61,759 nucleotides of DNA from Desulfobaccales bacterium (GTDB lineage: Bacteria > Desulfobacterota > Desulfobaccia > Desulfobaccales > 0-14-0-80-60-11). Both the position numbers and the translations under genes were made by a program. The DNA lies in the NCBI GenBank assembly GCA_030694005.1, contig JAUXZG010000084.1, forward strand, positions 1-61,759, in the 5' to 3' direction. The stretch's first letter is position 1. The number at the start of each line of letters is the position of its first letter. Positions 1 through 55,593 of this stretch are shown here, piece by piece. The notes under the pieces are model-generated. The model was not told the DNA's origin. It did no database searches and saw nothing but the letters and a program-made list of their open reading frames with translations.

Positions 1-24
1 GTAGCTGGTCGAGACTGGTTATCT

Positions 25-915
25 TCATGAGGCTGCCATTTGTGCGTAAGAATCAATGATTTTGGACACCTGACCGGGGGTCAGGCGGCCAAAGGTGTCC
101 TCCCCCACCCGCATGGCCGGAGCCAGAGCGCAACAGCCGATGCACCGCACCACTTCCAGGGTGAAGAGCATATCCTCGGTGGTCTGGCCGTGTTGGATCC
201 CCAATTTCCTTTCCAGTTGGTCCAGCAGGCGGGGTGAGCCTTTGACAAAGCAACCCGTGCCCAGGCAAACATTGATGATATGTTTTCCCCGGGGGGTCAG
301 GCTGAAGGCATTATAGAAACTGGCCACCCGTAAGATTTCCGTCAACGGCACCTTGAGCTCATCCGCCACATGTTCCAGGGAAGCCCGGGGCAGCCAGTTA
401 AAATGCCGGTTGATATCCAGCAAAATGGGCAGCAGGTTGCCGCGCTCGTCCCGGTGGCGGCCGATAATGTCCGCCACCGCGGCTTCCTCGGTGGCCGCCG
501 TATAGGCCGTGCGGGCGCGCGCCTCCTCCTCCGGCAGCTGCACCTCATAACGGATGGGACAGGCGTCCAGGCAGACCCCGCAGCCGGTGCACTTTTCCGG
601 ATTCACATAACGGGGATGCTTCTTAAGGGTAACTTCGAGATTGCCGGGCTCACCCGTAACCTCTTTCAGGTCTGTCAGGGTATGGATTTCGATGTTTGTG
701 TGCCGGCCGACCTCGACCAGTTTGGGGGAGATAATTCACATAGCGCAGTCGTTAGTGGGAAAGGTCTTGTCAATCTGTGCCATGGTGCCGCCGATGGCCG
801 AGCTCTTTTCCACCAGGTGGACATAGTAGCCCGAATTGGCCAGATCCAGCGCGGCCTGCATCCCGGCGATGCCGCCTCCGGCGACCAGTACCGACCCAAG
901 CACTTTTTCGGTCAT
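25..915 (-). CDS. HdrA N-terminal FAD module (selenocysteine-containing) fused to a NuoE-like thioredoxin-fold [2Fe-2S] domain
   Basis: ATG at 915 is preceded by AGGGGG. Fifty-nine codons ([29 protein letters not shown]...[10 protein letters not shown]) run into TGA at 736-738. The same frame then continues [18 protein letters not shown]...[16 protein letters not shown] into track ORF 25-606, which is NuoE-like (CLGTGC...CIGCCALAP). The paralog at 52531-55593 reads TNDCSMCILSPKL, with Cys aligned to the TGA. Confidence 0.75.
703..720 (-). promoter_or_regulatory. Candidate bacterial SECIS hairpin for the TGA at 736-738
   Basis: The minus-strand RNA CUGGUCG-AGGU-CGGCCGG forms a 7-bp stem (2 G-U pairs) with a GGU-containing loop. 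It starts 15 nt after the UGA. Folded by eye only. Confidence 0.45.
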
Positions 916-1334
916 AACAAACCCCCTGGCTGGCTAATTTTCTGTCATTGTAAGGAAGGAGAGTGAGGTTGATATCCGGTTCTATTTTTAAATGACTAAT
1001 TCTCTTGTACTTTTTAACTAAAGTTCATTTATCTTCTAGTTTATCTGCCCAATTTTTGTCAAGAAGAAATTTTGTCATAATTCCTCATAGAAATTATCTG
1101 CCTGATAGTTCAGCTAAAATGGTATCTCCTTTGGTCTCCGGTTTTGCTTCCAGCGCCCTCCTGATTTAACGTCAACCTGATAACTCCCCGGCGAATATTT
1201 TCACCCGAAACAAAAGACGGCCGCCGGCCTCAGCAAAAATTGCCTGGGGGACAAGACCAGGATTGGCCGGAATTAAATGAGCTTTAAGGGCGGGATTGAG
1301 GCAAAAAGGGGGTAAAGGTTTTCTCCCCCCGTCA

Positions 1335-1365
1335 GCCGGGCGGCGGGGTGGTCCCGCCGCCCGGC
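1335..1365 (-). terminator. Strong GC hairpin 10 nt downstream of the HdrA/MvhD gene stop
   Basis: GCCGGGCGGCGGG-gtggt-CCCGCCGCCCGGC is a perfect 13-bp stem. No clean U-tract follows, so it could be a terminator, an attenuator or an RNA-stability element. Confidence 0.4.
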
Positions 1366-1374
1366 GACAAAGGT

Positions 1375-3828
1375 TCACTGCAGGCTATAGTAAGGGGTCC
1401 GGTTGATAAAGATGCGGGAGACCACCCCTTCGCCATTCAGCTCTCTGAGACAGTTGTACGCCTGTTCCTTTTCCACCTCTAGAGCCTGGGCGATGTCGTG
1501 GAGTTGCAACGGCCTGGCTCTCCGCTGCAGCAGGTTGGTGATCCGGGTCCTAAAAAACTCCTCGCTGATGATGTCCGTCAAGGCCTGGTCATAGGCCAGG
1601 GGGTTGGGCATCTGCGAAGGGTAAGTGGTCTCTCCGGGGCAGCGCAGGCTGACCCCCAACACCCAGCGCACCCGGGCGTTATGCAAGGTGTCGTAAGTAG
1701 CCCTGAGCCTATTTAGAGTCGCTTCATCCCTGACGATGGGTCCCAGGCGGTCCATGGTGGCAAGAAAACTCTCCACGGTCCGGACATATTGTTGGGGCTT
1801 GTTCAGATCGCAGTGCGCCAGGGTGATGCGTTCCCTTTCCAAGCCGCATAGAGACAGCAGTTTTTTCAGCAACAAGACCCGGCTCCAGGTATGGTCCAGA
1901 CCGTAACTGTGGTGGCATTCCTCGGGCCGGCAGCCTATGAGTAAAAGACCGTTGGCCCCTTCTAAAAAGGCCCGTCCCATGACCAGGGGGTCAAGCTGGC
2001 CGAGGCATTGCAGCGGCAAGAGGTAAAGCCTGGGGCTGACGGTCAGGCCGCGCAGACCGGCATGGTCCGCGGCCGGGATGCCACTCCACTGGCACCCGAA
2101 ACCGATGACTTCATCGTCGTTGAGCTGCTGCGCCAGGGAAGCTACGGTGGCTTCATGGCGGGCGGTATTGTAAATCTGGGAACTTATGGCCAGATGGGGG
2201 CAGGCCGCGGCGCAGGTGGCGTCCCCCGTGCACACCAGGGGGTCCACTATTCGGGGAGTGCTGCCACCCAAGCCTTCCCACGGTTCGATCGCCCCACAGT
2301 CGCAGATTTCCCGGCAAAGGGTGCAAGAAGTGCACAGGTTCGCGTCCACCTGACAGACATTGAGGACCGCCAGGAGCTTCCCGGCCCTGGCCTTTCCCAA
2401 CAACGCCGCCTTTTTCTTGGCCGTCTGGCGTCCCTGGCGCAGGGCTTCCAGCAAGTCGCAAGGCTGGCGGGCCGAACCCGCGATGGGCAACTTCTCGTCC
2501 AGGGCCACCTCGTGGGGCATGACCATCTGGGGATACCTTTCCAAAAACACGCCTTCGATAACTTTCTTACCCAGAGTGTTGGCCGTCTTGGACGCAGCCG
2601 GACCGATGCGCCAACGGGGCGACAGGACCAGTTGGTCCCAGGGCAGCTCATGCTCCACCTGATCATCAAGACGGGTGAAAGTGAGGTAACCCGACTGGAC
2701 CGAGGGCCGGGTGTTGCCGTCGTAAACAACGAGAGAGATGCCCAGTTCCCGGCCCCGGCGACGCTCTGAAGTACTCAGGGGGAACGAAATCAGGTGGTTA
2801 TACAAAATAGCCATCCGGGCCTGGGGTGAATGCTCCCGGATATAGCTGGCGGTGCGCCAGGCGGCCCGGGCGGAAAGCTGGCCGTAAGGCTGATCCATCT
2901 CCACATCGTTAATCCAGAAAACCAGCCGGTGCTCCGGCGGGCCGTGGAGCCAGATGGACTCCTCCATCTCCCGTTGAGAAAGAACCCGCACCCCATCGTG
3001 GCCGAACTCAGACTCCTGGTCAAGGATCTCGGCGTCCAGGGCGGCGATGATGGTTCCGACCCGGTATTCCTGCGGAGGCTGGTCGGCAAACGAGATGGTG
3101 ACGTGGTATTCTCCCACCCTCCCCAGAACTTTTTCCACCGTGCCGCCGATGATCGTTTGCACCAGGGGGCTGTCGTACACCTCGCCCATAAGCTGCCGGA
3201 GACGGTCGTGGTAATGGCGTTCTCCGGGATAACGCTCATGCAGCCGGCGGAGCTCCTCCTCCATGTCCTTAAAGGGCACCGCGATGATGGTTTTGATCCC
3301 TTGGCGCAAAAGCTCCTGGGCGGCCCCGTAAGTGGCGATGCCCCCGCCCAGAATCATGATGGGTTCGTGAAAATCTATTTTAGTCTCAGAGGGAGTCCCT
3401 ATGGTCCGCAAGCCGGCCAGGGACGCCTTGATCAGCTTGGCCCCTTTCCGGGCCAGGTCGGCCGGCTCCCCAGGGTTTACCTGGGCTACATGGTCCCTCA
3501 GATTGACCATGTCGATCAAGCCTTGTTTGAATCCCAAGCCCTCCAGCTCCTGTTCGAATTTTTTCAGCAGGATGCGGCGTTCACACCCGGCCACCACCAG
3601 GCGATTAAGCTTTTTGCGGGCAATGGCCGCTTTAACTTTCTCCAGGCCGGGTCTTAAGCAGGGGAAAGGCAAGATGCCGATATGGGTAACCACCCCGGGG
3701 TCACGGAGCAGTTTGGCCATGGCCGTTAGGTCAACTTTGGGGGCGATCTTGGGGCCGCACTCGCAGAGAAAGACCCCGCAGCGGACCCCATCAGCCGGTT
3801 TTGGGGGTGATTTTACCGTGTGCATCAT
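1375..3828 (-). CDS. HdrA-like (C-terminal half) / MvhD-like fusion oxidoreductase with a winged-helix-like tail
   Basis: Track ORF 1375-3879. I moved the start to ATG 3828 (GAGGGAGGG Shine-Dalgarno, just after the upstream stop). CGVFLCECGPKIAP matches IGVFVCHCGINIAG of the large HdrA paralog. Also present: a GGGIATYG Rossmann-like motif, two Cys-rich ferredoxin motifs (CTSCTLCREICDC, CTGDATCAAACP), and an MvhD block (VIGFGCQWSG...LLIGCRPEECHHSYG). Confidence 0.8.
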   Translation of the reverse strand: MMHTVKSPPKPADGVRCGVFLCECGPKIAPKVDLTAMAKLLRDPGVVTHIGILPFPCLRPGLEKVKAAIARKKLNRLVVAGCERRILLKKFEQELEGLGFKQGLIDMVNLRDHVAQVNPGEPADLARKGAKLIKASLAGLRTIGTPSETKIDFHEPIMILGGGIATYGAAQELLRQGIKTIIAVPFKDMEEELRRLHERYPGERHYHDRLRQLMGEVYDSPLVQTIIGGTVEKVLGRVGEYHVTISFADQPPQEYRVGTIIAALDAEILDQESEFGHDGVRVLSQREMEESIWLHGPPEHRLVFWINDVEMDQPYGQLSARAAWRTASYIREHSPQARMAILYNHLISFPLSTSERRRGRELGISLVVYDGNTRPSVQSGYLTFTRLDDQVEHELPWDQLVLSPRWRIGPAASKTANTLGKKVIEGVFLERYPQMVMPHEVALDEKLPIAGSARQPCDLLEALRQGRQTAKKKAALLGKARAGKLLAVLNVCQVDANLCTSCTLCREICDCGAIEPWEGLGGSTPRIVDPLVCTGDATCAAACPHLAISSQIYNTARHEATVASLAQQLNDDEVIGFGCQWSGIPAADHAGLRGLTVSPRLYLLPLQCLGQLDPLVMGRAFLEGANGLLLIGCRPEECHHSYGLDHTWSRVLLLKKLLSLCGLERERITLAHCDLNKPQQYVRTVESFLATMDRLGPIVRDEATLNRLRATYDTLHNARVRWVLGVSLRCPGETTYPSQMPNPLAYDQALTDIISEEFFRTRITNLLQRRARPLQLHDIAQALEVEKEQAYNCLRELNGEGVVSRIFINRTPYYSLQ

Positions 3829-3838
3829 TAACCCTCCC

Positions 3839-4477
3839 TCAGTGGGCAAAGCCATGGCCGGTACGCCTGGAGACATCACCCCGCACCAGGTCTAGCCGGG
3901 TGCTCATGGCTCCGGTGGGGCAGACCGTGACACAGCAACCACAGGCGACACAGGCATTGTTAGGGACCCGGTAAGGGGTGTCCAGCTGTTTATTTACCCC
4001 CCGGGAGCCGAAGGTCAGGGCCTGCACCCCCACCACCTCGTTACAGACCGCCACGCAGCGGCCGCAGCGGAGACATTCCTCCTCGGGATCGGTTATGGTA
4101 AAGCGCGTGGCGGTCACCCCATACTCCCGGGCGAGATCCCGGATTTCCTTGGAGGCCGGACAATCAGCCAGGAGCATCTCCAGCACCCACCGCCGCACGT
4201 TTAAAACCCGCTCCGAGTGGGTAAACACCTCGAGTTTTGCTAGGGGCGGGTTGAGACAAGAGGGCATAACCTTGCCCCGTTTGCCATAGCGGACCTCCAC
4301 CACGCACAGGCGGCAGCCCCCCCAGGGCTTGACCGCGGGGTGAAAGCACAGGGTGGGTATGTGGATGTGGTATTGCTCGGCCGTCTCCAGGATGGTCCAG
4401 CCCGGGCGGGCCTGCACCGGCTGGCCGTCGATGGTGAAGTTGATTAAATCATCAGTTTTCTTTTTTTTCGGGCTCAT
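3839..4477 (-). CDS. 2Fe-2S / 4Fe-4S ferredoxin-like protein (NuoG/HndD N-terminal type)
   Basis: Track ORF 3839-4531. The start is set at ATG 4477 (MSPKKKK), which has an AGGAGGTGAA Shine-Dalgarno. Motifs: LCFHP...GGCRLCVVEV...MPSC, then CLRCGRCVAVC and CVACGCCVTVCP. Confidence 0.8.
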   Translation of the reverse strand: MSPKKKKTDDLINFTIDGQPVQARPGWTILETAEQYHIHIPTLCFHPAVKPWGGCRLCVVEVRYGKRGKVMPSCLNPPLAKLEVFTHSERVLNVRRWVLEMLLADCPASKEIRDLAREYGVTATRFTITDPEEECLRCGRCVAVCNEVVGVQALTFGSRGVNKQLDTPYRVPNNACVACGCCVTVCPTGAMSTRLDLVRGDVSRRTGHGFAH

Positions 4478-4488
4478 AAATTCACCTC

Positions 4489-6423
4489 CTACTCCACGAT
4501 AACGGCGCCCACCGGGCACACATCCATGCACGCGCCGCAGCGGATGCAGGCGGCATTATTGATGGTATGGGGCTTCTTTTTCCTGCCGCTGATGCAGTCC
4601 TGAGGACAGTTGCGCACGCACAGGGTGCAGCCGTTACAGGTCTTGGGGTCAACCCGGTAAATAATCAGGTCTTTGCATACCCCGGCGGGGCACTTATGGT
4701 CTTTGATGTGGGCCAGATATTCGTCCCTAAAGTATCTGATACTGGTCAGAACCGGATTGGGGGCGGTCCCCCCGAGACCGCACAAAGACCCGTCCCCGAC
4801 GGCCTGGGCCAGGCTTTTGAGCTCATCGATGTCCTCGACAGAGCCCTGGCCTCTGGAGAACTTGTCCAGGAACTCTTGCATGCCTTTGAGGCCCAGGCGG
4901 CAAGGCAGGCATTTGCCGCAGGACTCCTCCTGGAGAAAGCGCAGGAAGTAGCGGGCCACATCCACTACACAATCCCGGTTGTCCATGACGATCATGCCCC
5001 CCCCGCCCATGATGGACCCGGTCTGAGCCATGGAATCGAAGTCCACCGGGAGTTTCTTGAGCTCAGAGATAGGAACCGGGGCGCTAAGGCCGACGCGGGC
5101 TGGTTTCATATCTGCCGGGGGGAGATCCTTGAATTCGTAGGGGATGATGCCGCCCGAGGGGCCCCCGGTCTGGACCGCCTTGAACCTCTCCTGGCCGGGC
5201 ACGCCGCCACCGATCTCTTCGACGATGCGGCCCAGGGTGACGCCCATGGGCACCTCCACCAACCCGCTGTTTTTCACCTTGCCCACCAGGGAGAAGATCT
5301 TGGTGCCGGTGCTGTAAGGCACCCCCAGGTCGGTGTACCACTTGGCGCCCTTGTCAATGATGTGGGGCACATTGGCCCAGGTCTCCACATTATTAATAAT
5401 CGTGGGGCGGTTCCACAGACCTTGCTGTGCCGGGTAGGGAGGCCGGGTGATGGGCTCGCCCACACGGCCCTCCAGAGAAGCTATAATGGCGGTCTCTTCC
5501 CCACAGACATAGGCTCCTGCCCCGCGGTTGATCTGAAGGTCGAAATCAAAGCCCGTGCCCAGGATGTTTTGCCCCAACAGTCCCAGGGAGCGGGCCTGCT
5601 CGATGGCGATGGACAGGTGCCGGATGGCGATGGGATATTCGTGCCGGACATAGAGGAAACCCTTGTTTGCCCCCAGGGCGTAGGCCCCGATGATCATGCC
5701 TTCCAAAACTGCGTGGGGGTCGCCTTCCATGATGGCCCGGTCCATGAAGGCCCCTGGGTCCCCTTCCTCGCCATTGCCAATGATATAGACGGGCCCCGGA
5801 TTCTCCCGGGCAATATCGGCGGCGCGCCGCCACTTGCGGCCGGTGGGGAACCCGCCGCCACCCCGGCCGCGCAGGCCGGATAACGACACCGTGTTGATGA
5901 TGTCCTCCGGAGACATTTGCGTCAGGGCCTTGGCAAATGACTGGTAGGCTCCGGCCATCAGGGCGTCGTCGATCTTTAACGGATCGATAATCCCCACATT
6001 TTTGAGGATGATCTTCTGCTGCATCTTATAAAAAGGAATCTCGGCGGCGGATTTGTACCTGGCGCCATTGTCGCTGTATAGCAGCCGCTCCACCACCTGC
6101 CCTTTGACCAGACTGGCTTCCACAATTTCTTCAACATCCTCCGGTTTCACCCGGACATAAAACAGATCAGCAGGGGATAAGCTGACTAGGGTCCCCTGAC
6201 TGCAGAAGCCGTGGCAGCCCGTCTCTTTGATCAGGGGCTGGACCTTGGCCCTTAGCTTTTTGGCCTTGATGGTTGATTTAAAAGCCTGGGAAACCATAGC
6301 CGCGCCCTGGGCCAGGCAACCCGGCCCCAGGCACACCCTTACTACCGGCCGCTTAGGGTCTTGGGCCTTGAGCAGCTTTTTTTGCAGGCCGGCGAGTTGT
6401 GCGGCACTTTTGATCCTTTCCAT
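4489..6423 (-). CDS. NuoF/HndC-like NAD(P)H-binding FMN Fe-S flavoprotein with N-terminal thioredoxin-like and C-terminal 2x[4Fe-4S] domains
   Basis: 644-aa ORF. It has GLRGRGGGGFPTGRKW (FMN/NADH site), ESCGKCLPCRLG, and a C-terminal CNGCTLCVRNCP...CIRCGACMDVCP. Confidence 0.9.
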   Translation of the reverse strand: MERIKSAAQLAGLQKKLLKAQDPKRPVVRVCLGPGCLAQGAAMVSQAFKSTIKAKKLRAKVQPLIKETGCHGFCSQGTLVSLSPADLFYVRVKPEDVEEIVEASLVKGQVVERLLYSDNGARYKSAAEIPFYKMQQKIILKNVGIIDPLKIDDALMAGAYQSFAKALTQMSPEDIINTVSLSGLRGRGGGGFPTGRKWRRAADIARENPGPVYIIGNGEEGDPGAFMDRAIMEGDPHAVLEGMIIGAYALGANKGFLYVRHEYPIAIRHLSIAIEQARSLGLLGQNILGTGFDFDLQINRGAGAYVCGEETAIIASLEGRVGEPITRPPYPAQQGLWNRPTIINNVETWANVPHIIDKGAKWYTDLGVPYSTGTKIFSLVGKVKNSGLVEVPMGVTLGRIVEEIGGGVPGQERFKAVQTGGPSGGIIPYEFKDLPPADMKPARVGLSAPVPISELKKLPVDFDSMAQTGSIMGGGGMIVMDNRDCVVDVARYFLRFLQEESCGKCLPCRLGLKGMQEFLDKFSRGQGSVEDIDELKSLAQAVGDGSLCGLGGTAPNPVLTSIRYFRDEYLAHIKDHKCPAGVCKDLIIYRVDPKTCNGCTLCVRNCPQDCISGRKKKPHTINNAACIRCGACMDVCPVGAVIVE

Positions 6424-6450
6424 CTTTTCCTCCTGTGGCCAGGCAGACGA

Positions 6451-6906
6451 TTAGAGTTTTTCCAGGCGCTTCTGCAGCGAAGGGATGGAAGCCGCGCCCA
6501 GGTAATCTTCATCAATCATCACCACCGGGGCCAGGGCACAGGCGCCCACGCATTTGACGGTATCCAGAGTGAAACGCAGGTCTTCGGTGGTGTGGCCCCG
6601 GGCCACGGCCAGGTCCCGTTCACACGCCTCGACGAGACGGCCCCCCCCTTTAAGATGACAGGTGGTGCCCAAGCAGACTTTGATTTCATGTTCCCCTCGG
6701 GGCTCAAGACTGAAGGATTTATAGAAAGTGGCCACGGCCCAAGCCTGGGTTAAGGGGACTCCCACATGGTCACAGATCAACGCCAGGTGCTCCGGGGAAA
6801 TGTATTTATACTCGGCCTGCACATCCTGAAGCAGGCTGATGAGATGTTGGGGCTGCTTCGGATACCTTTCCAGGATGTCGTCGATCTCCAGGGTGGTTGC
6901 TTTCAT
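6451..6906 (-). CDS. NuoE/HndA-like thioredoxin-fold [2Fe-2S] subunit
   Basis: 151-aa ORF with CLGTTCHLKG...CVGACALAPV and the FYKSFSLEPRG motif typical of the 24-kDa subunit family. Confidence 0.9.
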   Translation of the reverse strand: MKATTLEIDDILERYPKQPQHLISLLQDVQAEYKYISPEHLALICDHVGVPLTQAWAVATFYKSFSLEPRGEHEIKVCLGTTCHLKGGGRLVEACERDLAVARGHTTEDLRFTLDTVKCVGACALAPVVMIDEDYLGAASIPSLQKRLEKL

Positions 6907-6964
6907 GCCTTGGCCCTCTCCTTTAAATGATGGGAATAATTTCGGTTTTCAGCAAATAATCCAG

Positions 6965-6979
6965 GCAATAAGCTTACCA
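6965..6979 (-). promoter_or_regulatory. Sigma-54 type -24/-12 promoter for the nuoE-like operon
   Basis: The minus strand reads TGGTAAGCTTATTGC, against the consensus TGGCACG-N4-TTGC. GG-to-GC spacing is correct. It lies about 59 nt upstream of ATG 6906, and a sigma-54 enhancer-binding protein gene sits immediately upstream. Confidence 0.6.
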
Positions 6980-7043
6980 AGTGGTTAACCTGCTGTTTTT
7001 CATGGAAATAAAGATCTCTCAGGAAGAGGCCACTTCGAGGATT

Positions 7044-7074
7044 TGTTTCACAGATGAAACGAACTGAAACAATG
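7044..7074. promoter_or_regulatory. Candidate enhancer (UAS) with TGTTTCA/TGAAACA half-sites
   Basis: TGTTTCA-caga-TGAAACg-aac-TGAAACAATG lies 65-95 nt upstream of the -24/-12 element. The 10-mer TGAAACAATG recurs in inverted orientation at 9213-9222, upstream of the regulator gene. Confidence 0.45.
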
Positions 7075-7150
7075 AGGGCTTTAACTCGCTGATATTATAT
7101 GATTAATTAACTAGAAAAAAAGTTTCTCCTTTTCGGGACATCTTTGGCAC

Positions 7151-7290
7151 ATTAATAGGCTGTTGAAAAACTATCCATTTCTTCAAATTGTCATTCTGAG
7201 CGAAGCGAAGAATCTAGTGAGATTAATAAGTTCTAGATCCTTCATCCGTTCAGGATGACACCCAAACCCGCTTTTCAACAGCCTGTTAAT
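7151..7290. repeat. 140-bp nested inverted-repeat (MITE-like) element
   Basis: Outer inverted repeat: ATTAATAGGCTGTTGAAAAA (7151-7170) against the reverse complement of CTTTTCAACAGCCTGTTAAT (7271-7290), 18/20 matching. Inner imperfect repeat: TGTCATTCTGAGCGAAGCGAAGAATCTAG (7189-7217) against CTAGATCCTTCATCCGTTCAGGATGACA (7233-7260). Confidence 0.6.
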
Positions 7291-7349
7291 CCGGCTTGGT
7301 AGGGGGAGGAAATCTGCTTAAGGAAGAGCTCAGAGGGAAATTTGGCTGG

Positions 7350-9092
7350 TTAGAAGAGCCCGTAGGCCTTCATTTTTCGCCACAGCGAGCTGCGGCTGAT
7401 TCCCAGGGAGCGGGCCGCCGCCTCCCGGCGCCCCCGGGCCTTTTGCAGGGCCTTCTGAATCGTCAGGCGTTCATCTTCCCAAAGGTAGCCGGACTTGCTC
7501 ACCTCCCGAATCAGGGGGAGGTTGGGACCCAGGGTCAAAGATGCTTCCATATCAGGCAGATGGGATTTGGTGATAATCGGCCCTTTGACAAAGACAAAGG
7601 CATATTCCAAAACCCGCTCCAGTTCCCGCACATTCCCCGGCCAGGAATACTTCTGGAACATGGTCATGACTTTGGGGTCCACCCCCCGCACCTCTTTTTT
7701 GTACTTGCGGTTGAGGCGGGCCACGAAATGGTTGACCAGCAGCGGGATATCCTCCACCCGTTCCCTTAAGGGCGGGAGATACAGGGGCACGGTCCGCAGA
7801 CGGTACAAAAGGTCCATGCGGAATCGCCCCTGGCGCACCTCCTGGAGCAGGTTGCGGCTGGTGGCGGCGATCACCCGGGCCTCCAAGGGGATGGGCCGGT
7901 TGCTGCCCACCCGTTCAAAGACCCTTTCCTCCAGGACCCTGAGGAGTTTGGTCTGGAGCTCGGGTTTGAGATCGGCAATTTCGTCCAGAAATAAAGTTCC
8001 ACCTTTGGCCAGCTCCAACCTCCCCACCTTGTGGCTGATGGCCCCGGTAAAAGCGCCTTTCACATGGCCGAACAATTCTGATTCAATCAAGGTCTCAACC
8101 AAAGCCGAACAATTAAAGGCTACGAAGGGCCCCCGGGCCCAGGGGCTTTGCCGGTGAATGGCCAGGGCCAAAAGGTCCTTGCCCGTGCCCGACTCCCCTT
8201 CCAGGACCACCGAGGCCTCAGAGGCAGCCACATCGGGCAGCAGGTCCAGCAACTGCCTTAAGGCGGGATGCTGTCCGATGATCTCCACTTCCCGGGGTGG
8301 CGGCGGCAAATCTGCACCGGGAACCTGCACCCGGGACAGGGGCTTAAAGGTCTGGACCGCCCCGACAATCACTTCTCTGCGGTTCTTGATGGCAGAGCTG
8401 TCAACCAGGATGGTGAGGCGGCGCCCGCCTTTATTGACAATGTGCACGTCCTGGTCCGTGCGGGTCACCCCGTCTTCCAGGGTGGCTTTGAGGAAGCAGC
8501 CGGCTCTGCAGCGGTCGGCTTTGAAGATATCCCAGCAGTATTGGCCCAGGACCTCCTCCCGCCTAAAACCGGTGATTTCCTGGGCCATCTTGTTGAAACC
8601 GGTGATGCGCCGGCGGTTGTTCACCGTGAAGATCCCCCCGGCAAAGTTTTCAAATACCGCTTCGGGGTCGATATCCAGGCCGTTATTGGCCCAGGTGGAC
8701 CAGGCCCTGGTAAGGGTGTTGTCCCTAAAGGTCAGGACGGCGCCGATGATCTTGTCCTCCGGACTATACAGGGGAGCCACCGAGTAGTTAAGGAAGTGGG
8801 TGGCGCCCGATGCCAGGTGGACCTGGGCCATCAGGTTGGCGCGGCTGGTGCCGGCCTTTAGGGCCTCCTTAAGCGCCAACTCAGCCTGGGGGAGATATTG
8901 CTCACCAAAGAGCTGGTCCAGAGGCAAGGTCTGGCCGCGACTCAGTTTTCTCTTGAGGAGTCGTTCGGTTTGGAGGGAGGCGGACAGGATTTGCCGCGAG
9001 GGGGAAATGATCAAGACGCCGTCACCCTCGGGCAGGTCCTCAAAATTGTTGGTTCCCTGGACCATCTGGAACCTTTGGCCTGGAGGTGCCAA
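7350..9092 (-). CDS. Sigma-54-dependent transcriptional activator (PAS-PAS-AAA+-Fis HTH)
   Basis: 580-aa ORF with GESGTGKDLLALAIH (Walker A), the GAFTGA motif (GHVKGAFTGA), and a C-terminal ARSLGISRSSLWRKMKAYGL helix-turn-helix. Confidence 0.92.
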   Translation of the reverse strand: MAPPGQRFQMVQGTNNFEDLPEGDGVLIISPSRQILSASLQTERLLKRKLSRGQTLPLDQLFGEQYLPQAELALKEALKAGTSRANLMAQVHLASGATHFLNYSVAPLYSPEDKIIGAVLTFRDNTLTRAWSTWANNGLDIDPEAVFENFAGGIFTVNNRRRITGFNKMAQEITGFRREEVLGQYCWDIFKADRCRAGCFLKATLEDGVTRTDQDVHIVNKGGRRLTILVDSSAIKNRREVIVGAVQTFKPLSRVQVPGADLPPPPREVEIIGQHPALRQLLDLLPDVAASEASVVLEGESGTGKDLLALAIHRQSPWARGPFVAFNCSALVETLIESELFGHVKGAFTGAISHKVGRLELAKGGTLFLDEIADLKPELQTKLLRVLEERVFERVGSNRPIPLEARVIAATSRNLLQEVRQGRFRMDLLYRLRTVPLYLPPLRERVEDIPLLVNHFVARLNRKYKKEVRGVDPKVMTMFQKYSWPGNVRELERVLEYAFVFVKGPIITKSHLPDMEASLTLGPNLPLIREVSKSGYLWEDERLTIQKALQKARGRREAAARSLGISRSSLWRKMKAYGLF

Positions 9093-9398
9093 CCCGCGCC
9101 GCGGCAGATCCAGGTAAGTAGGGGTTTTTAAAGGGTCAGGAAAAGCCCCCAGTTTTTTTATCTGATTTTAACAATAGCATCAACTAACCAAAACTTCAAA
9201 CAAATCTTAGGCCATTGTTTCACACTTGACACGAGATGTCTGGCTTCCGGTCCCCAAGATTAAACCTTATATCAACGGAAAATCAAAATTATCACCCAGG
9301 ATCGCTGAGCGGTTAAAAGTTTCGGGGGTTGGAGATAATTTTACGGGAGATTAGCCTTGCGAAGAGACCAGAAAGATTCATAATAAATTTAACATATC

Positions 9399-10145
9399 AT
9401 GGATGTCATAGAGATAATTACCAAAAGCGCCCTGGTTAGGTCAAAAATATCCGGCGTGGACTATGTGATCAACCCTTTTCTGGGGTGCGGCCACGGCTGC
9501 CGCTACTGCTATGCGGTCTTCATGCGAAAATACTCCCACCATCATCGTCAGGCTCCCTGGGGGACCTTCGTGGAGGTAAAGGTAAACCTGGTCGAGGTGT
9601 TGCGTTCAGAACTTCGCAGAAAAAAGCACCGGGGCCGGGCCCTACTTTCTAGTGTCTGCGATCCCTATCAACCCGTGGAACTTAAGTATCAATTGACGCG
9701 CCGATGTCTGGAAACCTTGAGGGATTATGGCTGGGGCATCGATATCCTGACCAGATCGCCCCTGGTAACCCGTGATCTGGATATTCTTGCGGAAATGCCT
9801 GAGGTTACCGTGGGGCTTTCCATCCCTACCGATAACGACCAAGTTCGCAAAGTCCTGGAGCCCAATGCTCCTCCTCTAGGGGCCCGCCTGACCGCTTTGC
9901 AACGATTGCATGAGGCCGGTATCCCTACCTGGGTATTCATAGCCCCTATCCTGCCCATGAATCCCAGAAAGCTTTATGAAGCTATTTCGGCATATATAAC
10001 TCATCTAAGGGTTGATCCACTTAACTACCGGAATCAGGTAGAGGAGATATTTCGCAGAAATCAATGGGATTATGCGCTCACCGATAAATATGCCGCTCAA
10101 ACCCGCGCCGCTTTACTCCGGATGTGGGCGAATAAGGTAAACTGA
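9399..10145 (+). CDS. Radical SAM protein (SplB/COG1533-like)
   Basis: 248-aa ORF with INPFLGCGHGCRYCYA, the CxxxCxxC radical SAM cluster motif in COG1533 context. Confidence 0.75.
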   Translation: MDVIEIITKSALVRSKISGVDYVINPFLGCGHGCRYCYAVFMRKYSHHHRQAPWGTFVEVKVNLVEVLRSELRRKKHRGRALLSSVCDPYQPVELKYQLTRRCLETLRDYGWGIDILTRSPLVTRDLDILAEMPEVTVGLSIPTDNDQVRKVLEPNAPPLGARLTALQRLHEAGIPTWVFIAPILPMNPRKLYEAISAYITHLRVDPLNYRNQVEEIFRRNQWDYALTDKYAAQTRAALLRMWANKVN

Positions 10146-19312: not shown

Positions 19313-20170
19313 TTACGCCACCAGGGCCAGATTTTGGAGCAATGGCCGGGGGTCCACCAGGTGGCGGACAAACCACTCCTCGTAATCCTTGGCGCCCAGG
19401 GCCAGGGCCAGAACTTCCGAAAAGTGGAAGACGGGAAGCCTCTCCCTGGAGGTGCAACGGATCTCCAGATTGAGCTGGCACATGGCACAGGCGGTGACCA
19501 GACAATGGGCCTTGGCAGCCACGGCGCTGTCGATGATTTCGTTGACCAGGGGGGTGACTATTTCCGGGTCGGTGGCGGAAAGAAAGGAGCCGCAACAGCG
19601 ATGCGTATAAGCCCCGATGATGGGCTCGGCCCCCAAGGCCACCAGAATATCTTCCATTTCGCCCTGGTAATATTTTTCCTTTTCCAGATCCGGGGGGCGA
19701 AACACGGCACAGCCGTAATAGGGCACAAACTTAAGACCCGTAAGGCTCCGTTTGGCGCTCTGTTTCAGGCGGTCCAATCCGAACCGCACCAGCACCTCCA
19801 TAAAGTGCATGATTTTCAAGTCCAAATTGATCGGCCGTCCCCAACGCTCTTCTAAAGAACGGTGGGTTTCCGGATCCTTCTTGAGACAGACCTTGGCATG
19901 CCGCAAATAATGCAGGCAGCGGGGGCACATGGCCACCAGGGGTCTGCCGGCCGGGGCCAGGGACAGGTTGCGGGCCGCCATTCCCAGGCTTAAATTCTTG
20001 CACATGGTTTGCGCGGAGGAGGAGCCGCAGCAGTTCCAGTCGGAAAGTTCGATGAGGTTCAGGCCCAATATTTTGGCAGACTGCATCAGGGACATATTGG
20101 CTTCCGCGGCCGTAGTGGCCATGGAGCAGCCCGGGAAGTATGAGAAGTCAATCTGGTGGTGAAGGCTCAT
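19313..20170 (-). CDS. hdrB: Heterodisulfide reductase subunit B-like (two CCG domains)
   Basis: 285-aa ORF with FPGCS...NCCGSSSA...YYGCAV...CCGSFL...CAMCQLNLE. Confidence 0.88.
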   Translation of the reverse strand: MSLHHQIDFSYFPGCSMATTAAEANMSLMQSAKILGLNLIELSDWNCCGSSSAQTMCKNLSLGMAARNLSLAPAGRPLVAMCPRCLHYLRHAKVCLKKDPETHRSLEERWGRPINLDLKIMHFMEVLVRFGLDRLKQSAKRSLTGLKFVPYYGCAVFRPPDLEKEKYYQGEMEDILVALGAEPIIGAYTHRCCGSFLSATDPEIVTPLVNEIIDSAVAAKAHCLVTACAMCQLNLEIRCTSRERLPVFHFSEVLALALGAKDYEEWFVRHLVDPRPLLQNLALVA

Positions 20171-20763
20171 TTAGACTCCCTCCAGTAGCACTTGAAAAGG
20201 TCGCCGATCTCTTCTTGGGCTTGCACCCGTGACGGCCTCAGGTCCAGCTTGCGCTTGGCCAGCATCTTGAGACCCACGTCCAGATCACTGAGCCAGCGTC
20301 GGGTTTTCACCTTGTAGCGCCACATGATCCCCAGTTTATGGGCGCGACCGTAACGTTCCAGGGACCTGAGCACTTCCTCGTGGAAGTCAAGGATGTTGGG
20401 CTTGGCTATGGCTACCCCTTCCTCCACCGCCATCAGGCGCAAGGTATCCATCACGGCCGCCATGTCGATGCCCATGGGGCACTGGCTGGAACAGGTATGA
20501 CAGCCTACGCAGATCCAGATGGTTTTACATCTCAGGACTTCCTCCCGCATGCCGAACTGCAGCAGGCGCAGGACCAGGTTGGGAGGATAATCCATGGCCC
20601 GGATGAAAGGACAGCCATTGGCGCAGGCGTGGCACTGATAACACCGATTTAGGTCGGTGCCGCTTTTCTCGATAACCTCGGCCGCCAGAAAACCCCGAGG
20701 TTGGCCAACTTCAATAACCGTCCTGGGGGCGGCCGGTTTTGCCAGGGGGGTGGTTTGGCTCAT
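20167..20763 (-). CDS. hdrC: Heterodisulfide reductase subunit C-like (2x[4Fe-4S])
   Basis: 198-aa ORF with CYQCHACANGCP and CVGCHTCSSQCP. It overlaps hdrB by 4 nt. Confidence 0.85.
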   Translation of the reverse strand: MSQTTPLAKPAAPRTVIEVGQPRGFLAAEVIEKSGTDLNRCYQCHACANGCPFIRAMDYPPNLVLRLLQFGMREEVLRCKTIWICVGCHTCSSQCPMGIDMAAVMDTLRLMAVEEGVAIAKPNILDFHEEVLRSLERYGRAHKLGIMWRYKVKTRRWLSDLDVGLKMLAKRKLDLRPSRVQAQEEIGDLFKCYWRESK

Positions 20764-52062: not shown

Positions 52063-52494
52063 TTAAGCCGCCCGGGCCGCCTGTTTCAGGGGGGAGGGGC
52101 CCATTTTCTGGATCTTGGCGGTGAAGTCCCGCACCGTCTGGGCGAATTTGGGGCCTTCGGCGGCGGAGATCCAATCCAGGTGCAGCCTGCCTTCCTCCAT
52201 GCCCACGAACTTCATGAGGTCCTGGAGGAAGCGCATGCGCTTGATGGTCATGTAATTGCCTTTAAGATAATGGCAGTCGCCGATATGGCAGCCGCCGATG
52301 AGGACGCCGTCGGCCCCCTTTTGGAAGGCCCGCAGTACATGGTGCGGCGATACCGACCCGGAGCACATTACCCGGATGACCCGAATGTGGGGAGGGTATT
52401 GCAGACGGCTGACGCCGGCCAGGTCGGCGCCGGCGTAAGTGCACCAGTTACACAGAAATGCCAGGATTCTGGGTTCAAAATTGCTGTCGGCCAT
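52063..52494 (-). CDS. mvhD: MvhD-like hydrogenase/Hdr-associated [2Fe-2S] subunit
   Basis: 143-aa ORF with ILAFLCNWCTYAGADLAG...VMCSGSV...LIGGCHIGDCHY. Confidence 0.9.
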   Translation of the reverse strand: MADSNFEPRILAFLCNWCTYAGADLAGVSRLQYPPHIRVIRVMCSGSVSPHHVLRAFQKGADGVLIGGCHIGDCHYLKGNYMTIKRMRFLQDLMKFVGMEEGRLHLDWISAAEGPKFAQTVRDFTAKIQKMGPSPLKQAARAA

Positions 52495-52530
52495 CTTTCG
52501 TCCCTTGGTTTTTAAGTTGAGTCTTAAGCT

Positions 52531-55500
52531 TTAACCGGCTGCTTCTTCAGAAAGGGCCTGGTCCACTTGCGCATAGATCTGCTTGTGGCTGAACCCTAAC
52601 AGGGTGATGCATTCCGACGGGCAGGTGGCGGCGCAGGTGCCGCACCCCTTGCACAGGGCCTGGTTCACTTCGGCCACAGCCTCGTCTTCCTTGTAGGTAA
52701 TGGCCCCAAAGGGGCAAACCTCCACGCAGGCCTGGCAGCCCGAGCACAGCATGGGGTCCACAATAGCCACCACGCCCCCGGCCCTAATCGACTCCTGGGA
52801 CAGGATCACCGCGGCCCGGGCCGCCGCGGCCTTGGCCTGGGCGATGGACTCGTCAAGGGGTTTGGGGTAATGGGCCAGGCCGGCGACAAACACCCCTTCG
52901 GTGGCGAAATCCACCGGCCTGAGCTTCATATGGGCCTCCAGGAAGAAGCCTTCGTTGTTCAAGGGCACCTTGAACATCTTGGCCAGCTTTTCCTGGTCCT
53001 TGACAATGATGGCGGAGGCCAGGGTCAGGACCTCCGGGTGGATGCTGATGGGCAGGCGCAGGACATGGTCCAGCACGGTCACCTTAAGCCCGCCGTCCGC
53101 GGTCTGTTCCACCTTGGGCTTGCTGTCCAGGTCAAAGCGGATGAACATGACCCCTTTTTCCCGGGCTTCCTTGTAAAGGTTTTCCCGCAGACCGTAGGTG
53201 CGCATATCCCGATAGAGGATATATACGTCCATGTCCGGGTTGAGCTCTTTGAGCTTGACGGCGCTTTCCACCGAGTGGGTGCAGCACACCCGGCTGCAAT
53301 AGGGCCGCTCCGGCTCCCGGGAGCCCACGCACTGGATGAACACCGCGCTCTTGGCCCCCATGACCAGGGGGTTCTTCTCCCGCATGGCCTGATCCATCTC
53401 CAGGGCGAGAAACACCCGGGGATTTTCTTTGTAGAGATATTCCGTGGGCTTGTAGGGATGGCCGCCGATGGCGATGACCGCGGTGCCGTGCTCCACCGCG
53501 GTGTCCCGCCCCTGGGTGGTGACGGTGGACTTGAAATTGCCCACAAAGCCCGTAACCTCGGTGAGTTCGGAGTTGAGGTGCACCTCGATCTTGGGGTGGT
53601 TGGTCACCCTTTTTACCAACTTGTCCACGAAAGGCTTGATGGCCTCCCCGGTCCAGGCGTGGTTGAGCTCCAAGGCGTGGCCGCCCAAGAAGTCCTTTTT
53701 CTCCACCAGATGCACCTTGAAACCCTGGTCGGCCAACCCGAGGGCCGCTTCCATACCCGCCACGCCGCCACCGATGACCAGGCCGACCTTGGTGATGGGC
53801 AGGCTGAACTCCACCAGGGGCTGCTGCAGGGCCACCTTGGAGACGGACATGCGCACCTGGTCCTTGGCCCTCTTGGTGGCGAGCTCGGGCACGTCCATGT
53901 GGACCCAGGAGCCCTGGTCCCGAATGTTGGCCAGCTCAAAGAGGTATCTGTTCAGCCCGGCTTCTCTCAAGGTCTCCTGGAAGAGGGGTTCGTGGGTGCG
54001 GGGCGTACAGGAAGCCACCACCACCCTATTCAGGTGGTGCTCCTTGATGCGCTCCTTGATAAGCTCCTGGGTGTCCTGGGAGCAGGAGAACAGGTTGTTT
54101 TCCACATACTCCACAAAGGGCAGGGTCTTGGCGTAATCCCGCACCGCCTCCACGTCAATGACCCCGGCGATATTGATGCCGCAGTGGCAGACGAAGACGC
54201 CGATGCGCGGCGGTTCCTGGGAAACATCTCGCTCGGGGAATTCCGGTTTTTTGCGGGCCAGGGAAAAGCGGGCCGCGGTAAGAAGTGCGCTGGCCGCCGA
54301 AGCCGAGGCCGACGCCTCCATCACCGACTGGGGGATGTCCTTGGGTCCCTGGAAGGCGCCGCAGACAAAGACGCCGGGGCGGGAGGTGGACACCGGCGTA
54401 AAGGGCGAGGTCTGGGCAAACTTGTTGGTATTCAGGTCCACGCCCAGGGTGCGGGCCAACTCCATAACATCCGGGGAGGTTTCCAAGCCCACGGACAGGA
54501 CCAACATGTCAAAGACTTCATCCTTGATGTTGCCTTCTTCGTCAATATAGCGGATCTGGACATCGTCCGTGCCCGGCACCGGGTCCACGGTGTGGATGCG
54601 GGAGCGCACGAAGCGGACGCCTTGTTCCTCTTCGGCCCGCCAGTAATATTTCTCAAAGTCCTTCCCCATGGTGCGCATGTCCATGAAGAAGATGGTGGCC
54701 TCCAGGCCGTTCTTGCTGTGCTCCTTGGCGATCACCGCCTCTTTGATGGCATACATGCAGCACACCGCGGAACAGTGGCTGTTGTCGCAGCGATGCAGGT
54801 CCCGGGAGCCCACGCACTGGAGCCAGGCAACCTTCTTGGGTTCCTTGTGGTCCGAGGGCCGCACCAGGTGGCCTTCAAAGGGGCCGGAGGCGGACAGGAT
54901 GCGCTCGAACTCCATACTGGTGACGACATTGGGAAAAGCCGTGTAATGATAGGAGGCGTAAGGGGTGGGATCAAATATCTTGAAGCCCGGGGCCAGGATC
55001 ACCGCGCCCACCTGGATGTCCCGCTCTTTGTCCTGGTCGTCGAAGACCACCGCGCCGGTGGGGCAGAACTTTTCGCAGGCCTTGCATTTGCCGCCCTTCT
55101 TGAAGTAAAGGCAGGTGGCGGCATCAATGGCGTATTTGAGCGGCACCGTCTGGGGATACAGCACATAGGCCGATTTCCGGGGGGCCAGGCCCTGGTTGAA
55201 TTCATCGGGCACCTTTTTGGGGCACTTCTGGGCGCAGATGCCGCAGGCGATGCACTTGGCCGGGTCGATATAGCGGGCCGGCTGCTTCACCTTGACGGTA
55301 AAATTGCCCGGCTCGCCGCTGATCCCCTTAACCTGGGCCGGGGCCAGGATTTCGATGTTCAAATGGCGGCCGCATTCCACCAGCTTGGGGGACAGGATGC
55401 ACATGGAACAGTCGTTGGTGGGGAAGGTCTTGTCCAGCGCGGCCATGACCCCGCCGATGCCGGTTTGCTTCTCCACCACATAGACATAGAAACCGGAGTT

Positions 55501-55593
55501 GGCCAGGTCCAGGGCCGCCTGCACTCCGGCGATGCCCGCGCCCACCACCATCACCGCGCCTACGGGTTTACTTCCCTGCTTTTTTGCGCTCAT
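52531..55593 (-). CDS. hdrA: Large HdrA-like FAD/Fe-S oxidoreductase (two tandem HdrA-type modules, C-terminal 2x[4Fe-4S])
   Basis: 1020-aa ORF with [46 protein letters not shown], a second Rossmann motif (VIGGGVAGMEAALGLADQG), and CSGCQACVEVCP...CKGCGTCAATCP. Confidence 0.9.
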   Translation of the reverse strand: MSAKKQGSKPVGAVMVVGAGIAGVQAALDLANSGFYVYVVEKQTGIGGVMAALDKTFPTNDCSMCILSPKLVECGRHLNIEILAPAQVKGISGEPGNFTVKVKQPARYIDPAKCIACGICAQKCPKKVPDEFNQGLAPRKSAYVLYPQTVPLKYAIDAATCLYFKKGGKCKACEKFCPTGAVVFDDQDKERDIQVGAVILAPGFKIFDPTPYASYHYTAFPNVVTSMEFERILSASGPFEGHLVRPSDHKEPKKVAWLQCVGSRDLHRCDNSHCSAVCCMYAIKEAVIAKEHSKNGLEATIFFMDMRTMGKDFEKYYWRAEEEQGVRFVRSRIHTVDPVPGTDDVQIRYIDEEGNIKDEVFDMLVLSVGLETSPDVMELARTLGVDLNTNKFAQTSPFTPVSTSRPGVFVCGAFQGPKDIPQSVMEASASASAASALLTAARFSLARKKPEFPERDVSQEPPRIGVFVCHCGINIAGVIDVEAVRDYAKTLPFVEYVENNLFSCSQDTQELIKERIKEHHLNRVVVASCTPRTHEPLFQETLREAGLNRYLFELANIRDQGSWVHMDVPELATKRAKDQVRMSVSKVALQQPLVEFSLPITKVGLVIGGGVAGMEAALGLADQGFKVHLVEKKDFLGGHALELNHAWTGEAIKPFVDKLVKRVTNHPKIEVHLNSELTEVTGFVGNFKSTVTTQGRDTAVEHGTAVIAIGGHPYKPTEYLYKENPRVFLALEMDQAMREKNPLVMGAKSAVFIQCVGSREPERPYCSRVCCTHSVESAVKLKELNPDMDVYILYRDMRTYGLRENLYKEAREKGVMFIRFDLDSKPKVEQTADGGLKVTVLDHVLRLPISIHPEVLTLASAIIVKDQEKLAKMFKVPLNNEGFFLEAHMKLRPVDFATEGVFVAGLAHYPKPLDESIAQAKAAAARAAVILSQESIRAGGVVAIVDPMLCSGCQACVEVCPFGAITYKEDEAVAEVNQALCKGCGTCAATCPSECITLLGFSHKQIYAQVDQALSEEAAG

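Follow-up and report, generated by a model that had tools for sequence, protein, structure and literature searches.

The DNA examined here, hereafter the window, is a stretch of 61,759 nucleotides that constitutes one entire contig (C171) of a metagenome-assembled genome (MAG) of a Desulfobaccales bacterium; the MAG comprises 2.6 Mb in 260 contigs and is 94.7% complete. At the left end of the window, within positions 25-6979, lie five co-oriented genes with NuoE-, NuoF-, NuoG-N-, HdrA-, and MvhD-type modules, and the question they raise is whether their products form one electron-bifurcating complex. Bfu- and HdrA-type modules are the two main routes by which anaerobes link a third redox pair to NADH and ferredoxin, and their combination has only just been seen, in a one-megadalton benzoyl-CoA reductase. 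A sequence-only reading of this DNA had proposed a single five-gene bifurcating system. Pfam and NCBIfam matches bear out the five genes and their modules, and the set proves to be a four-gene operon followed by the first gene of an independent hydrogenase operon. The four-gene operon (6906-1375) and the activator gene that precedes it (9092-7350) are called unit 1 here; the operon of gene 25-915, inside which the contig begins, is called unit 2, and all genes of both units in the window are on the minus strand. From its sequence and by analogy with solved enzymes, we think it reasonably likely that unit 1 encodes a soluble four-subunit enzyme of the Bfu (HydABC-type) family, in which BfuB and BfuC would form the bifurcating core, BfuA would act as a wire, and the fourth subunit would serve as an adaptor.

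We recovered relatives of unit 1 with a profile of the 817-residue family to which its fourth subunit belongs, and then searched their loci by tblastn with the window proteins, calling genes from the tblastn matches with simple open reading frame (ORF) logic. A single-protein search for related loci found no relatives, unlike the profile search, which found them in 152 species genomes. The best 80 relatives are all Thermodesulfobacteriota MAGs, from the Desulfobaccales, Desulfarculales, Syntrophobacterales, Desulfobacterales, Desulfatiglandales, and Syntrophales. In 63 of the 65 related loci with room for them, the genes stand in the order bfuC-bfuB-bfuA-hdrA/mvhD, one pair among the loci compared being redundant. 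The 817-residue family occurs in 37 of 401 sampled genomes of the phylum (28 of the 340 high-quality ones), and its carriers fall mainly into a few families. Full-length homologues of the protein number more than 300, with 53-74% identity, and at 50% clustering about four representatives span its full length, including the C-terminal tail. Cluster look-ups returned MAG entries only, named "hydrogenase iron-sulfur subunit" or "heterodisulfide reductase subunit A". Without gene 25-915, the activator and the four genes recur in some 60 other loci. Because the order recurs without that gene and the flanks differ, we take the conserved entity to be the activator plus four genes.

The first three genes of the operon encode a recognizable Bfu core. 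The product of bfuC (6451-6906; 151 residues) is a NuoE/HydC-like, thioredoxin-like [2Fe-2S] subunit that matches PF01257 (7.6e-46) and the HoxE/NuoE NCBIfam models, and its gene adjoins bfuB in 63 of 65 loci. The product of bfuB (4489-6423; 644 residues) is a NuoF/HydB-like subunit for flavin mononucleotide (FMN) and NAD(H), with Pfam domains Complex1_51K, NADH_4Fe-4S, 2Fe-2S_thioredx, and Fer4. The sequence-only reading had described a NuoF-like protein with extra iron-sulfur (Fe-S) domains, and these are present: an N-terminal [2Fe-2S] domain and a C-terminal 2x[4Fe-4S] ferredoxin domain flank the FMN/NAD(H) domain, the [4Fe-4S] cluster next to FMN, and the CPxxxC motif of the B2/Zn cysteine site, so that every element expected of a Bfu family B subunit is found. 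The best Protein Data Bank matches of BfuB are the B subunits of bifurcating enzymes (7T2R_B at 2.6e-214, then 9MQX_B, 8A6T_B, 7Q4V_B, 9N5U_B, 8OH5_B, and 7P5H_B), whereas respiratory, non-bifurcating NuoF matches at about 1e-102, some 100 orders of magnitude more weakly. The alignment of BfuB to 7T2R_B and 9MQX_B spans the whole protein and retains every cysteine motif, and the cluster motifs are invariant among six BfuB proteins. The proposal of an NADH- and ferredoxin-linked, electron-bifurcating type of complex is supported. BfuB keeps all cofactor motifs of the solved bifurcating enzymes. We also observed a 24-residue insertion in BfuB, PADMKPARVGLSAPVPISELKK, at residues ~435-457. Neither the solved BfuB structures nor the genome's other BfuB proteins have it, and one relative labelled Desulfobacca has part of it; it is lineage-specific, not a family trait.

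The third gene, bfuA (3839-4477; 212 residues), encodes a short NuoG-N/HoxU-like protein with one [2Fe-2S] and two [4Fe-4S] clusters (Pfam Fer2_4 and Fer4_7) that has neither a His-ligated cluster nor a C-terminal catalytic domain. Its best structural match is 9MQX_A, a 247-residue G-like chain, over residues 3-183 with all 12 cysteines matched. We infer that this chain is the short BfuA (WorA) of WorABCSL, as PMC12318220 cites this entry once. A short BfuA that carries no extra clusters or catalytic domain, together with a further subunit for the third reaction, is what defines Bfu Type 2. In the loci compared the fourth gene is always adjacent, and judged by its sequence unit 1 is, in the terms of PMC9304861, a BfuBC core plus a Type 2 BfuA plus one extra subunit. 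That classification names Rub, Nuo, Nfn, F420, NiFe, Mbh, FeFe, Fdh, Por, Codh, Wor, and Bam types, and we found no stand-alone HdrA type in it.

The extra subunit is the product of the fourth gene (1375-3828), an 817-residue fusion in which an HdrA N-terminal [4Fe-4S] domain, a degenerate TrxR-like domain, a C-terminal ferredoxin domain, an MvhD [2Fe-2S] domain, a helical extension, and a winged helix follow one another. The MvhD part matches the FlpD/MvhD domain (PF02662, 9.7e-29 at residues 574-696) and 5ODC_D, and the four cysteines expected of an MvhD adaptor (Cys579, 608, 633, and 638) are invariant in the family. The HdrA part matches the HdrA2 and HdrA NCBIfam models below cut-off (the best, HdrA2 NF040770, at 232 bits against a cut-off of 1100), and an AlphaFold2 model of the protein (predicted local distance difference test score, pLDDT, 85) has the HdrA fold, with 8RVY_A, 5ODC_A, and 7BKD_A as top Foldseek matches (E ~1e-29, template modelling score on the target 0.5-0.66). 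The family keeps the four cysteines of the N-terminal cluster, the GxGxxG motif, the C-terminal ferredoxin domain, and the MvhD cysteines; in the ferredoxin domain the second cysteine of the second motif varies (Gly, Asp, Cys, Glu, or Ala).

Lys409, at the flavin N5, and Glu356, which positions it, have been proposed to mark bifurcating HdrA proteins (M. thermolithotrophicus numbering; PMC12054007). In a profile alignment of the 817-residue family to 5ODC_A, the Lys409 position holds Asn (the consensus), Arg, His, or Gln, and Lys in 0 of 34 members. Cys386/399/403/404 of the TrxR-domain cluster and the Cys197 motif are lost, and the inserted 2x[4Fe-4S] ferredoxin domain is gone, with ~70 residues of the insert missing. 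By the Lys409/Glu356 criterion of PMC12054007, the HdrA-like domain of unit 1 is, on its sequence, non-bifurcating. With the bifurcation lysine, one Fe-S cluster, and the inserted ferredoxin domain all missing from this domain, bifurcation most likely takes place in BfuBC and not in HdrA.

These same parts occur together in the class II benzoyl-CoA reductase of Geobacter metallireducens, Bam[(BC)2DEFGHI]2. In its structure, described from cryo-electron microscopy in a preprint (10.64898/2026.04.10.717634), BamGH is a HydBC-type confurcating input and BamI is a wire; the C-terminal ferredoxin clusters of BamE take electrons from BamI, and the BamF [2Fe-2S] cluster is the next carrier. The TrxR2 half of BamE holds a structural, non-bifurcating flavin adenine dinucleotide (FAD), and BamF, a long form of MvhD, makes contact with BamI through its winged helix. 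BfuC, BfuB, and BfuA of unit 1 resemble BamG, BamH, and BamI, respectively, as an input for NADH and ferredoxin, and the 817-residue protein resembles the TrxR2 half of BamE, with its N-domain, non-bifurcating FAD domain, and C-terminal ferredoxin clusters, plus BamF, fused in unit 1 into one protein. Unit 1 differs from Bam in lacking the bifurcating TrxR1 half, the HdrBC-like BamD, and the BamBC tungsten module, and in having its own sigma-54 activator. The sequence-only reading held that the subunit composition does not match canonical versions; it is indeed non-canonical, but it has a precedent, equalling BamGHI plus BamF plus the TrxR2 half of BamE, and it fits Bfu Type 2. Unit 1 as a class II benzoyl-CoA reductase itself is ruled out by the absence of an AOR-family (BamB) gene: the genome, 94.7% complete as noted, gave no AFOR_N match, and neither unit has genes of the BamB, BamC, or BamD type.

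Since the Bam parts named above are present and TrxR1, BamD, BamBC, and any AOR-family protein are absent, we read unit 1 as a Bfu core plus adaptor whose output lies elsewhere or that acts directly on a substrate. In the proposed mechanism, BfuB and BfuC would bind NAD(H) and ferredoxin, with bifurcation or confurcation at the FMN and the neighboring Fe-S clusters, and the short BfuA would connect this core to the 817-residue subunit. That subunit would be a non-bifurcating HdrA scaffold carrying an MvhD [2Fe-2S] adaptor and a winged helix, like the TrxR2 half of BamE with BamF. As in Bam, electrons would pass from BfuA to the C-terminal ferredoxin clusters and on to the MvhD-type cluster, with the winged helix docked on BfuA. 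The MvhD-type cluster or the degenerate flavin site would then pass mid-potential electrons to or from a partner or substrate outside the operon. Unit 1 would thus be a compact four-gene version of an input plus adaptor, with its own regulator, in at least 150 species-level genomes of sulfate-reducer relatives, and it would offer a small, expressible model of electron hand-over from a Bfu core to MvhD/HdrA. Its partner or substrate, once found, would extend by one reaction the known energy metabolism of bacteria that are abundant in sediment and groundwater.

To look for such a partner we clustered the ORFs found within 6 kb downstream of the operon in 60 loci. The largest groups are other sigma-54 activators (16 of the 60 loci), a membrane Fe-S protein (8), an IscU-like protein (7), and a large HdrA (7), and an HdrB-like gene with the CCG domain is found in only 6. 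Within unit 1 itself there is no disulfide-reducing partner of the HdrBC or HdrD type and no formate dehydrogenase, as the sequence-only reading had noted, and we concur with it that the acceptor cannot be read from the sequence. No output partner is conserved next to the operon. Elsewhere in the window, HdrB-like (CCG) and HdrC-like genes stand at 19313-20763 on the minus strand, beside rrf2, nifS, and a NIL-ferredoxin gene and far from any hdrA. They could be the output partner for one HdrA system.

Several points weigh against the reading of unit 1 as a Bfu core with an adaptor. The assembly of the four products into a complex and the activity of that complex are drawn from homology and synteny alone, and every homologous locus compared is from a MAG. 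The search of the 60 loci found no general output partner in the 6 kb downstream of unit 1, which leaves the output of the adaptor open. In the degenerate TrxR-like domain, the GxGxxG motif and the C-terminal G...D are kept but the acidic residue of beta2 and the GG are lost, making FAD binding uncertain. Finally, the subfamily of the unit 1 protein has invariant polar motifs, namely HERYPGE (residues 197-203), FGHDG (275-279), FWxND (304-308), and Cys457-Asp458 (PCD), and these could form a catalytic or metal site in place of a passive adaptor.

This last point leads to the alternative that fares best, which we regard as possible though tentative: the 817-residue subunit may itself be the catalytic terminus of the enzyme, with invariant His, Asp, Glu, and Cys residues lining a degenerate flavin domain that binds a third substrate, either a small molecule or a protein, and reduces or oxidizes it, so that unit 1 would be a complete new type of Bfu reaction with no need of a partner. 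Such a role would suit a self-contained cassette, accompanied by a dedicated regulator in about 60 loci whose flanks are unrelated, and the four invariant motifs stand in place of the residues of the HdrA cluster and flavin environment. They are not kept in a paralogous protein encoded on another contig of the genome (C85), as expected if they confer substrate specificity, and the two cassettes have separate activators and differ in their upstream repeats. On the other hand, this region matches no known catalytic motif and no Pfam domain, and the equivalent TrxR2 domain of BamE has been described as structural. An extended form of the idea, to which we likewise attach a minor probability, is that unit 1 represents a free-standing, sigma-54-switched new class of Bfu reaction, in which a newly evolved site, built from the residues of these four motifs, would stand in for an Fe-S cluster next to the flavin pocket and the third substrate would be sensed by the activator through a three-cysteine (Cys3) PAS domain. 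If so, the two paralogous cassettes in this genome would serve two different substrates.

A second alternative concerns the extent of the system, namely that units 1 and 2 are one operon or supercomplex, with the sigma-54 promoter driving all the genes and both Bfu/HdrA sets assembling with an Mvh-type hydrogenase. The two units are adjacent and co-oriented in the window, and they are also neighbors, in other arrangements, in two genomes of the same family (L007 and G051). Between them, however, is a gap of 460 nucleotides (916-1374) that the sequence-only reading had recognized and had taken for a split within one gene set; the gap is real, and its interpretation is not sustained. Two strong tandem hairpins (1302-1368, minus strand) begin directly after the stop codon of unit 1, UUUUU follows the second, and an AT-rich stretch comes next. 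The hairpins have a minimum free energy of -48.6 kcal/mol (z = -4.7), and 0 of 200 shuffled sequences fold as well, which makes them the likely terminator of unit 1. Taken with the conservation of unit 1 alone, the gap is, on the sequence evidence, the boundary between two transcription units. An Rfam scan of positions 1-9400 found no known RNA in the gap and only a sub-threshold Acido-1 match, and a simple scan for sigma-70 promoters upstream of gene 25-915 gave nothing convincing. Unit 1 stands without unit 2 in nearly all loci. Gene 25-915 adjoins the cassette only in the closest relative, L007, where it is divergent from the activator; in G051 unit 2 lies 10 kb away on the opposite strand. 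Unit 2 also has its own full BfuCBA set. We therefore consider a single operon or supercomplex improbable.

It is also quite improbable that the HdrA-like domain of unit 1 is a second bifurcation site, which would give the enzyme two coupled bifurcations like those of class II benzoyl-CoA reductase. The HdrA fold with its N- and C-terminal cluster domains and fused MvhD would allow this, and Glu289 aligns with Glu356 in most family members (His or Asp in some), in a local alignment that could shift by two residues. The absence of Lys409 in all 34 members and the loss of the flavin-adjacent cluster and the inserted ferredoxin domain speak against it, as does the lack of a high-potential exit of the HdrBC or BamD type in the operon. 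Least probable is that the C-terminal winged helix binds DNA and makes the 817-residue protein a redox-sensing transcription factor, instead of or besides an enzyme subunit, for although the last 132 residues (model pLDDT 87) end in a winged helix resembling the winged helix-turn-helix folds of SmtB (ArsR), MarR, and Z-alpha, the Foldseek E-values are weak (3e-3 or worse), the operon already comes with an activator of its own and conserved sites for it, and the corresponding domain of BamF contacts BamI, not DNA.

The control of unit 1 by sigma-54 and an enhancer-binding protein, which the sequence-only reading had put forward, is supported by a conserved promoter box, conserved upstream heptamers, the adjacent activator gene, and the presence of rpoN (444.6 bits) in the genome. 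The activator (7350-9092; 580 residues) has the architecture PAS-PAS-AAA+(GAFTGA)-HTH_8, with Pfam matches to Sigma54_activat (1.6e-63), PAS_9, PAS_4, and HTH_8. A 443-nucleotide intergenic region separates its gene from bfuC, and the two are direct neighbors in 49 of the 55 loci with room. Within this region lies the -24/-12 box TGGTAAGCTTATTGC (6965-6979, minus strand), which on its own does not stand out from chance within the window. Nonetheless, 57 of 64 orthologous upstream regions contain a single TGG-N9-TGC box, where about 0.06 per locus would be expected by chance; in 53 of those 57 regions it lies 47-100 nucleotides before the bfuC start, its commonest form being TGGCAC-N5-TTGC. Putative activator half-sites (TGTTTCA, CGTTTCA, and TGAAACA; 7044-7071, minus strand) lie further upstream. 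In 46 of 48 orthologous loci, the 220 nucleotides that precede the sigma-54 box contain the heptamer TGTTTCA/TGAAACA, most often two to four times, against a genome background of 0.09 per kb. Among 157 sigma-54-like boxes in the genome, only that of unit 1 has two or more heptamers upstream, and the genome-wide scan for this combination found no promoter besides it. With its GAFTGA AAA+ domain, box, upstream sites, and rpoN, unit 1 is thus a predicted sigma-54-dependent system, and its transcription would need sigma-54 and the adjacent Cys3-PAS activator bound to the TGTTTCA repeats. Three cysteines in the second PAS domain (C186, C195, and C199) are 100% conserved in 54 activator orthologues, so that this domain may be a redox sensor with a metal or Fe-S centre. 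A palindromic dispersed repeat of ~135 bp (7153-7290), resembling a miniature inverted-repeat transposable element and assigned to neither strand, lies as an insertion between the enhancer sites and the activator gene; blastn finds at least nine near full-length copies of it with 76-84% identity on other contigs, some matching in both orientations.

We turn now to unit 2, whose first gene (25-915) encodes a fusion of an HdrA fragment to BfuC/NuoE. The gene is readable only if an in-frame TGA (736-738) is decoded, and this TGA stands at the Cys/selenocysteine (Sec) site of a DCxMC motif, as Sec60. Residues 8-122 match 5ODC_A 145-259, which covers the start of the FAD-binding domain, the Cys197-type site, and the first ferredoxin Cys motif, and residues 146-290 match the NuoE/HydC domain of 7T2R_C. 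We read the TGA as Sec because of this homology, the conservation of the TGA in five genomes of the same family (79-81% identity), and the presence of SelB in the genome. A simple fold downstream of the TGA was no better than shuffled sequences as a Sec insertion sequence, and aragorn found no tRNA-Sec in the MAG. The full-length fusion occurs in only about 12 of the 401 genomes.

The remainder of unit 2 is on another contig. Contig C2 starts with the reverse complement of the window's first 141 bases. A third contig, C136, is 1062 bp long and represents a variant of window positions 1-1062, with 95% identity, 56 mismatches, and the same 141-mer junction to C2. Given this strain heterogeneity, seen as a fork between C171 and C136, we place an assembly break inside the operon; that the window is linked to C2 by a 141-bp overlap at a strain fork and by synteny in relatives counts against the reconstruction. 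On C2, unit 2 covers 114-9792 (L003). The start of NuoF2 (BfuB) overlaps the stop of gene 25-915, and next comes a 1087-residue protein composed of BfuA-N, then HdrA 250-504, and then a second HdrA (2-234 plus 507-648 of 5ODC_A). It is followed by an MvhD with Sec (motif LVCG-U-HLGECHY, TGA at 6339-6341), MvhG, and MvhA; the last ends in RAYDP-U-LSCATH (DP-U-LSCATH at 9755-9757) and marks an [NiFeSe] enzyme. An IS200-like transposase gene (6667-7149 on C2) sits between mvhD and mvhG, and the same gene order without the transposase is found in two genomes of the same family (G051 and G373). The operon carries three selenoproteins: the HdrA fragment::BfuC fusion, MvhD, and the [NiFeSe] MvhA.

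As read from the sequence, the split HdrA of unit 2 retains the equivalents of Lys409 and Glu356, and the layout is that of a predicted double-TrxR (type II) HdrA whose inserted ferredoxin domain is interrupted by bfuC-bfuB-bfuA, the genes being fused in frame on either side. Since a Sec-containing MvhD and an [NiFeSe] Mvh hydrogenase follow, we read unit 2 as H2-linked; it would be an independent two-module machine in which both module types are hard-wired by gene fusion to a selenium-containing hydrogenase. The statement that the operon contains no hydrogenase therefore stands for unit 1 and fails for the operon of gene 25-915, which has MvhG and MvhA on C2. Like Bam, unit 2 has a full double-TrxR HdrA and, in its Sec-containing MvhD, a counterpart of BamF; it differs from Bam in having the [NiFeSe] Mvh hydrogenase in place of BamBC and in the splitting of its HdrA by bfu genes. 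The window also holds, at 52063-55593 on the minus strand, a gene for a 1020-residue BamE-like type II HdrA (52531-55593) followed by one for a 143-residue MvhD and, downstream, a 270-residue ORF that has no Pfam match. The HdrA layout of unit 2 is like that of this 1020-residue double-TrxR protein, with 52% identity.

Both units can also be set beside other characterized enzymes. In the Bfu Type 2/3 enzymes WorABCSL (9MQX, by the assignment made above) and NiFe-HydABCSL (7T2R) of Acetomicrobium mobile, the B subunit is the closest to that of unit 1, with all cluster motifs kept. The BfuA of unit 1 is likewise short and WorA-like, its BfuC is HydC-like, and in those enzymes, as is proposed for unit 1, an additional subunit supplies or accepts the third pair of electrons. 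The extra subunit of unit 1 differs in being an HdrA/MvhD/winged-helix fusion instead of a tungsten oxidoreductase or an NiFe hydrogenase. With MvhADG-HdrABC of methanogens (5ODC, 8RVU, and 7BKB), unit 1 has in common the HdrA fold and the MvhD [2Fe-2S] adaptor; it differs in lacking the hydrogenase, HdrBC, Lys409, the TrxR-domain cluster, and the inserted ferredoxin domain, and its mid-potential feed would be the Bfu module. The split HdrA of unit 2 is closer to the methanogen protein in keeping Lys409 and Glu356, with Sec at the Cys197-type site and an Mvh-type hydrogenase, but unit 2 has no HdrBC and has a Bfu module inserted into hdrA. Finally, in HdrA2B2C2 of Methanosarcina acetivorans, HdrA is likewise fused C-terminally to MvhD, and unit 1 differs from it in the absence of HdrB2C2 partners, in its degenerate flavin site, and in the extra helical extension and winged helix.

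A search of the literature for earlier work on such clusters found no biochemical characterization and no characterized orthologue of unit 1, only annotation-level mentions, and no paper that uses "Hdr-Bfu" or a similar name. The Desulfotignum phosphitoxidans genome has been described as containing a putative transcription unit nuoEFGmvhD that links NADH to ferredoxin reduction (PMC4046663). Its gene order is apparently that of unit 1, with the large gene named for its MvhD domain, a likeness drawn from annotation and not from sequence. The mention is itself at the level of annotation and includes no domain analysis, regulation, distribution, or experiment (PMC4046663). "NuoEFG complexes" are likewise mentioned in Desulfatiglandales MAGs (PMC13343851).

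The genome contains further sets of bfu genes. The paralogous cassette on contig C85 (L087, 2105-9596) is complete, with an activator, bfuCBA, and an 814-residue HdrA/MvhD fusion. Its identity to unit 1 is 47% for the activator, 62% for BfuC, 65% for BfuB, 49% for BfuA, and 39.5% for the fusion protein, from which the HERYPGE, FGHDG, and PCD motifs are absent. A sigma-54-like box of its own, TGGCCC-N5-TTGC, accompanies it, and its upstream repeats differ from those of unit 1. A third BfuCBA set, on contig C46 (L088, 13-3776), directly follows a gene fragment for a thiamine pyrophosphate-dependent enzyme of the pyruvate:ferredoxin oxidoreductase type and resembles the predicted Por-Bfu type. 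Contig C77 carries a further BfuCB pair.

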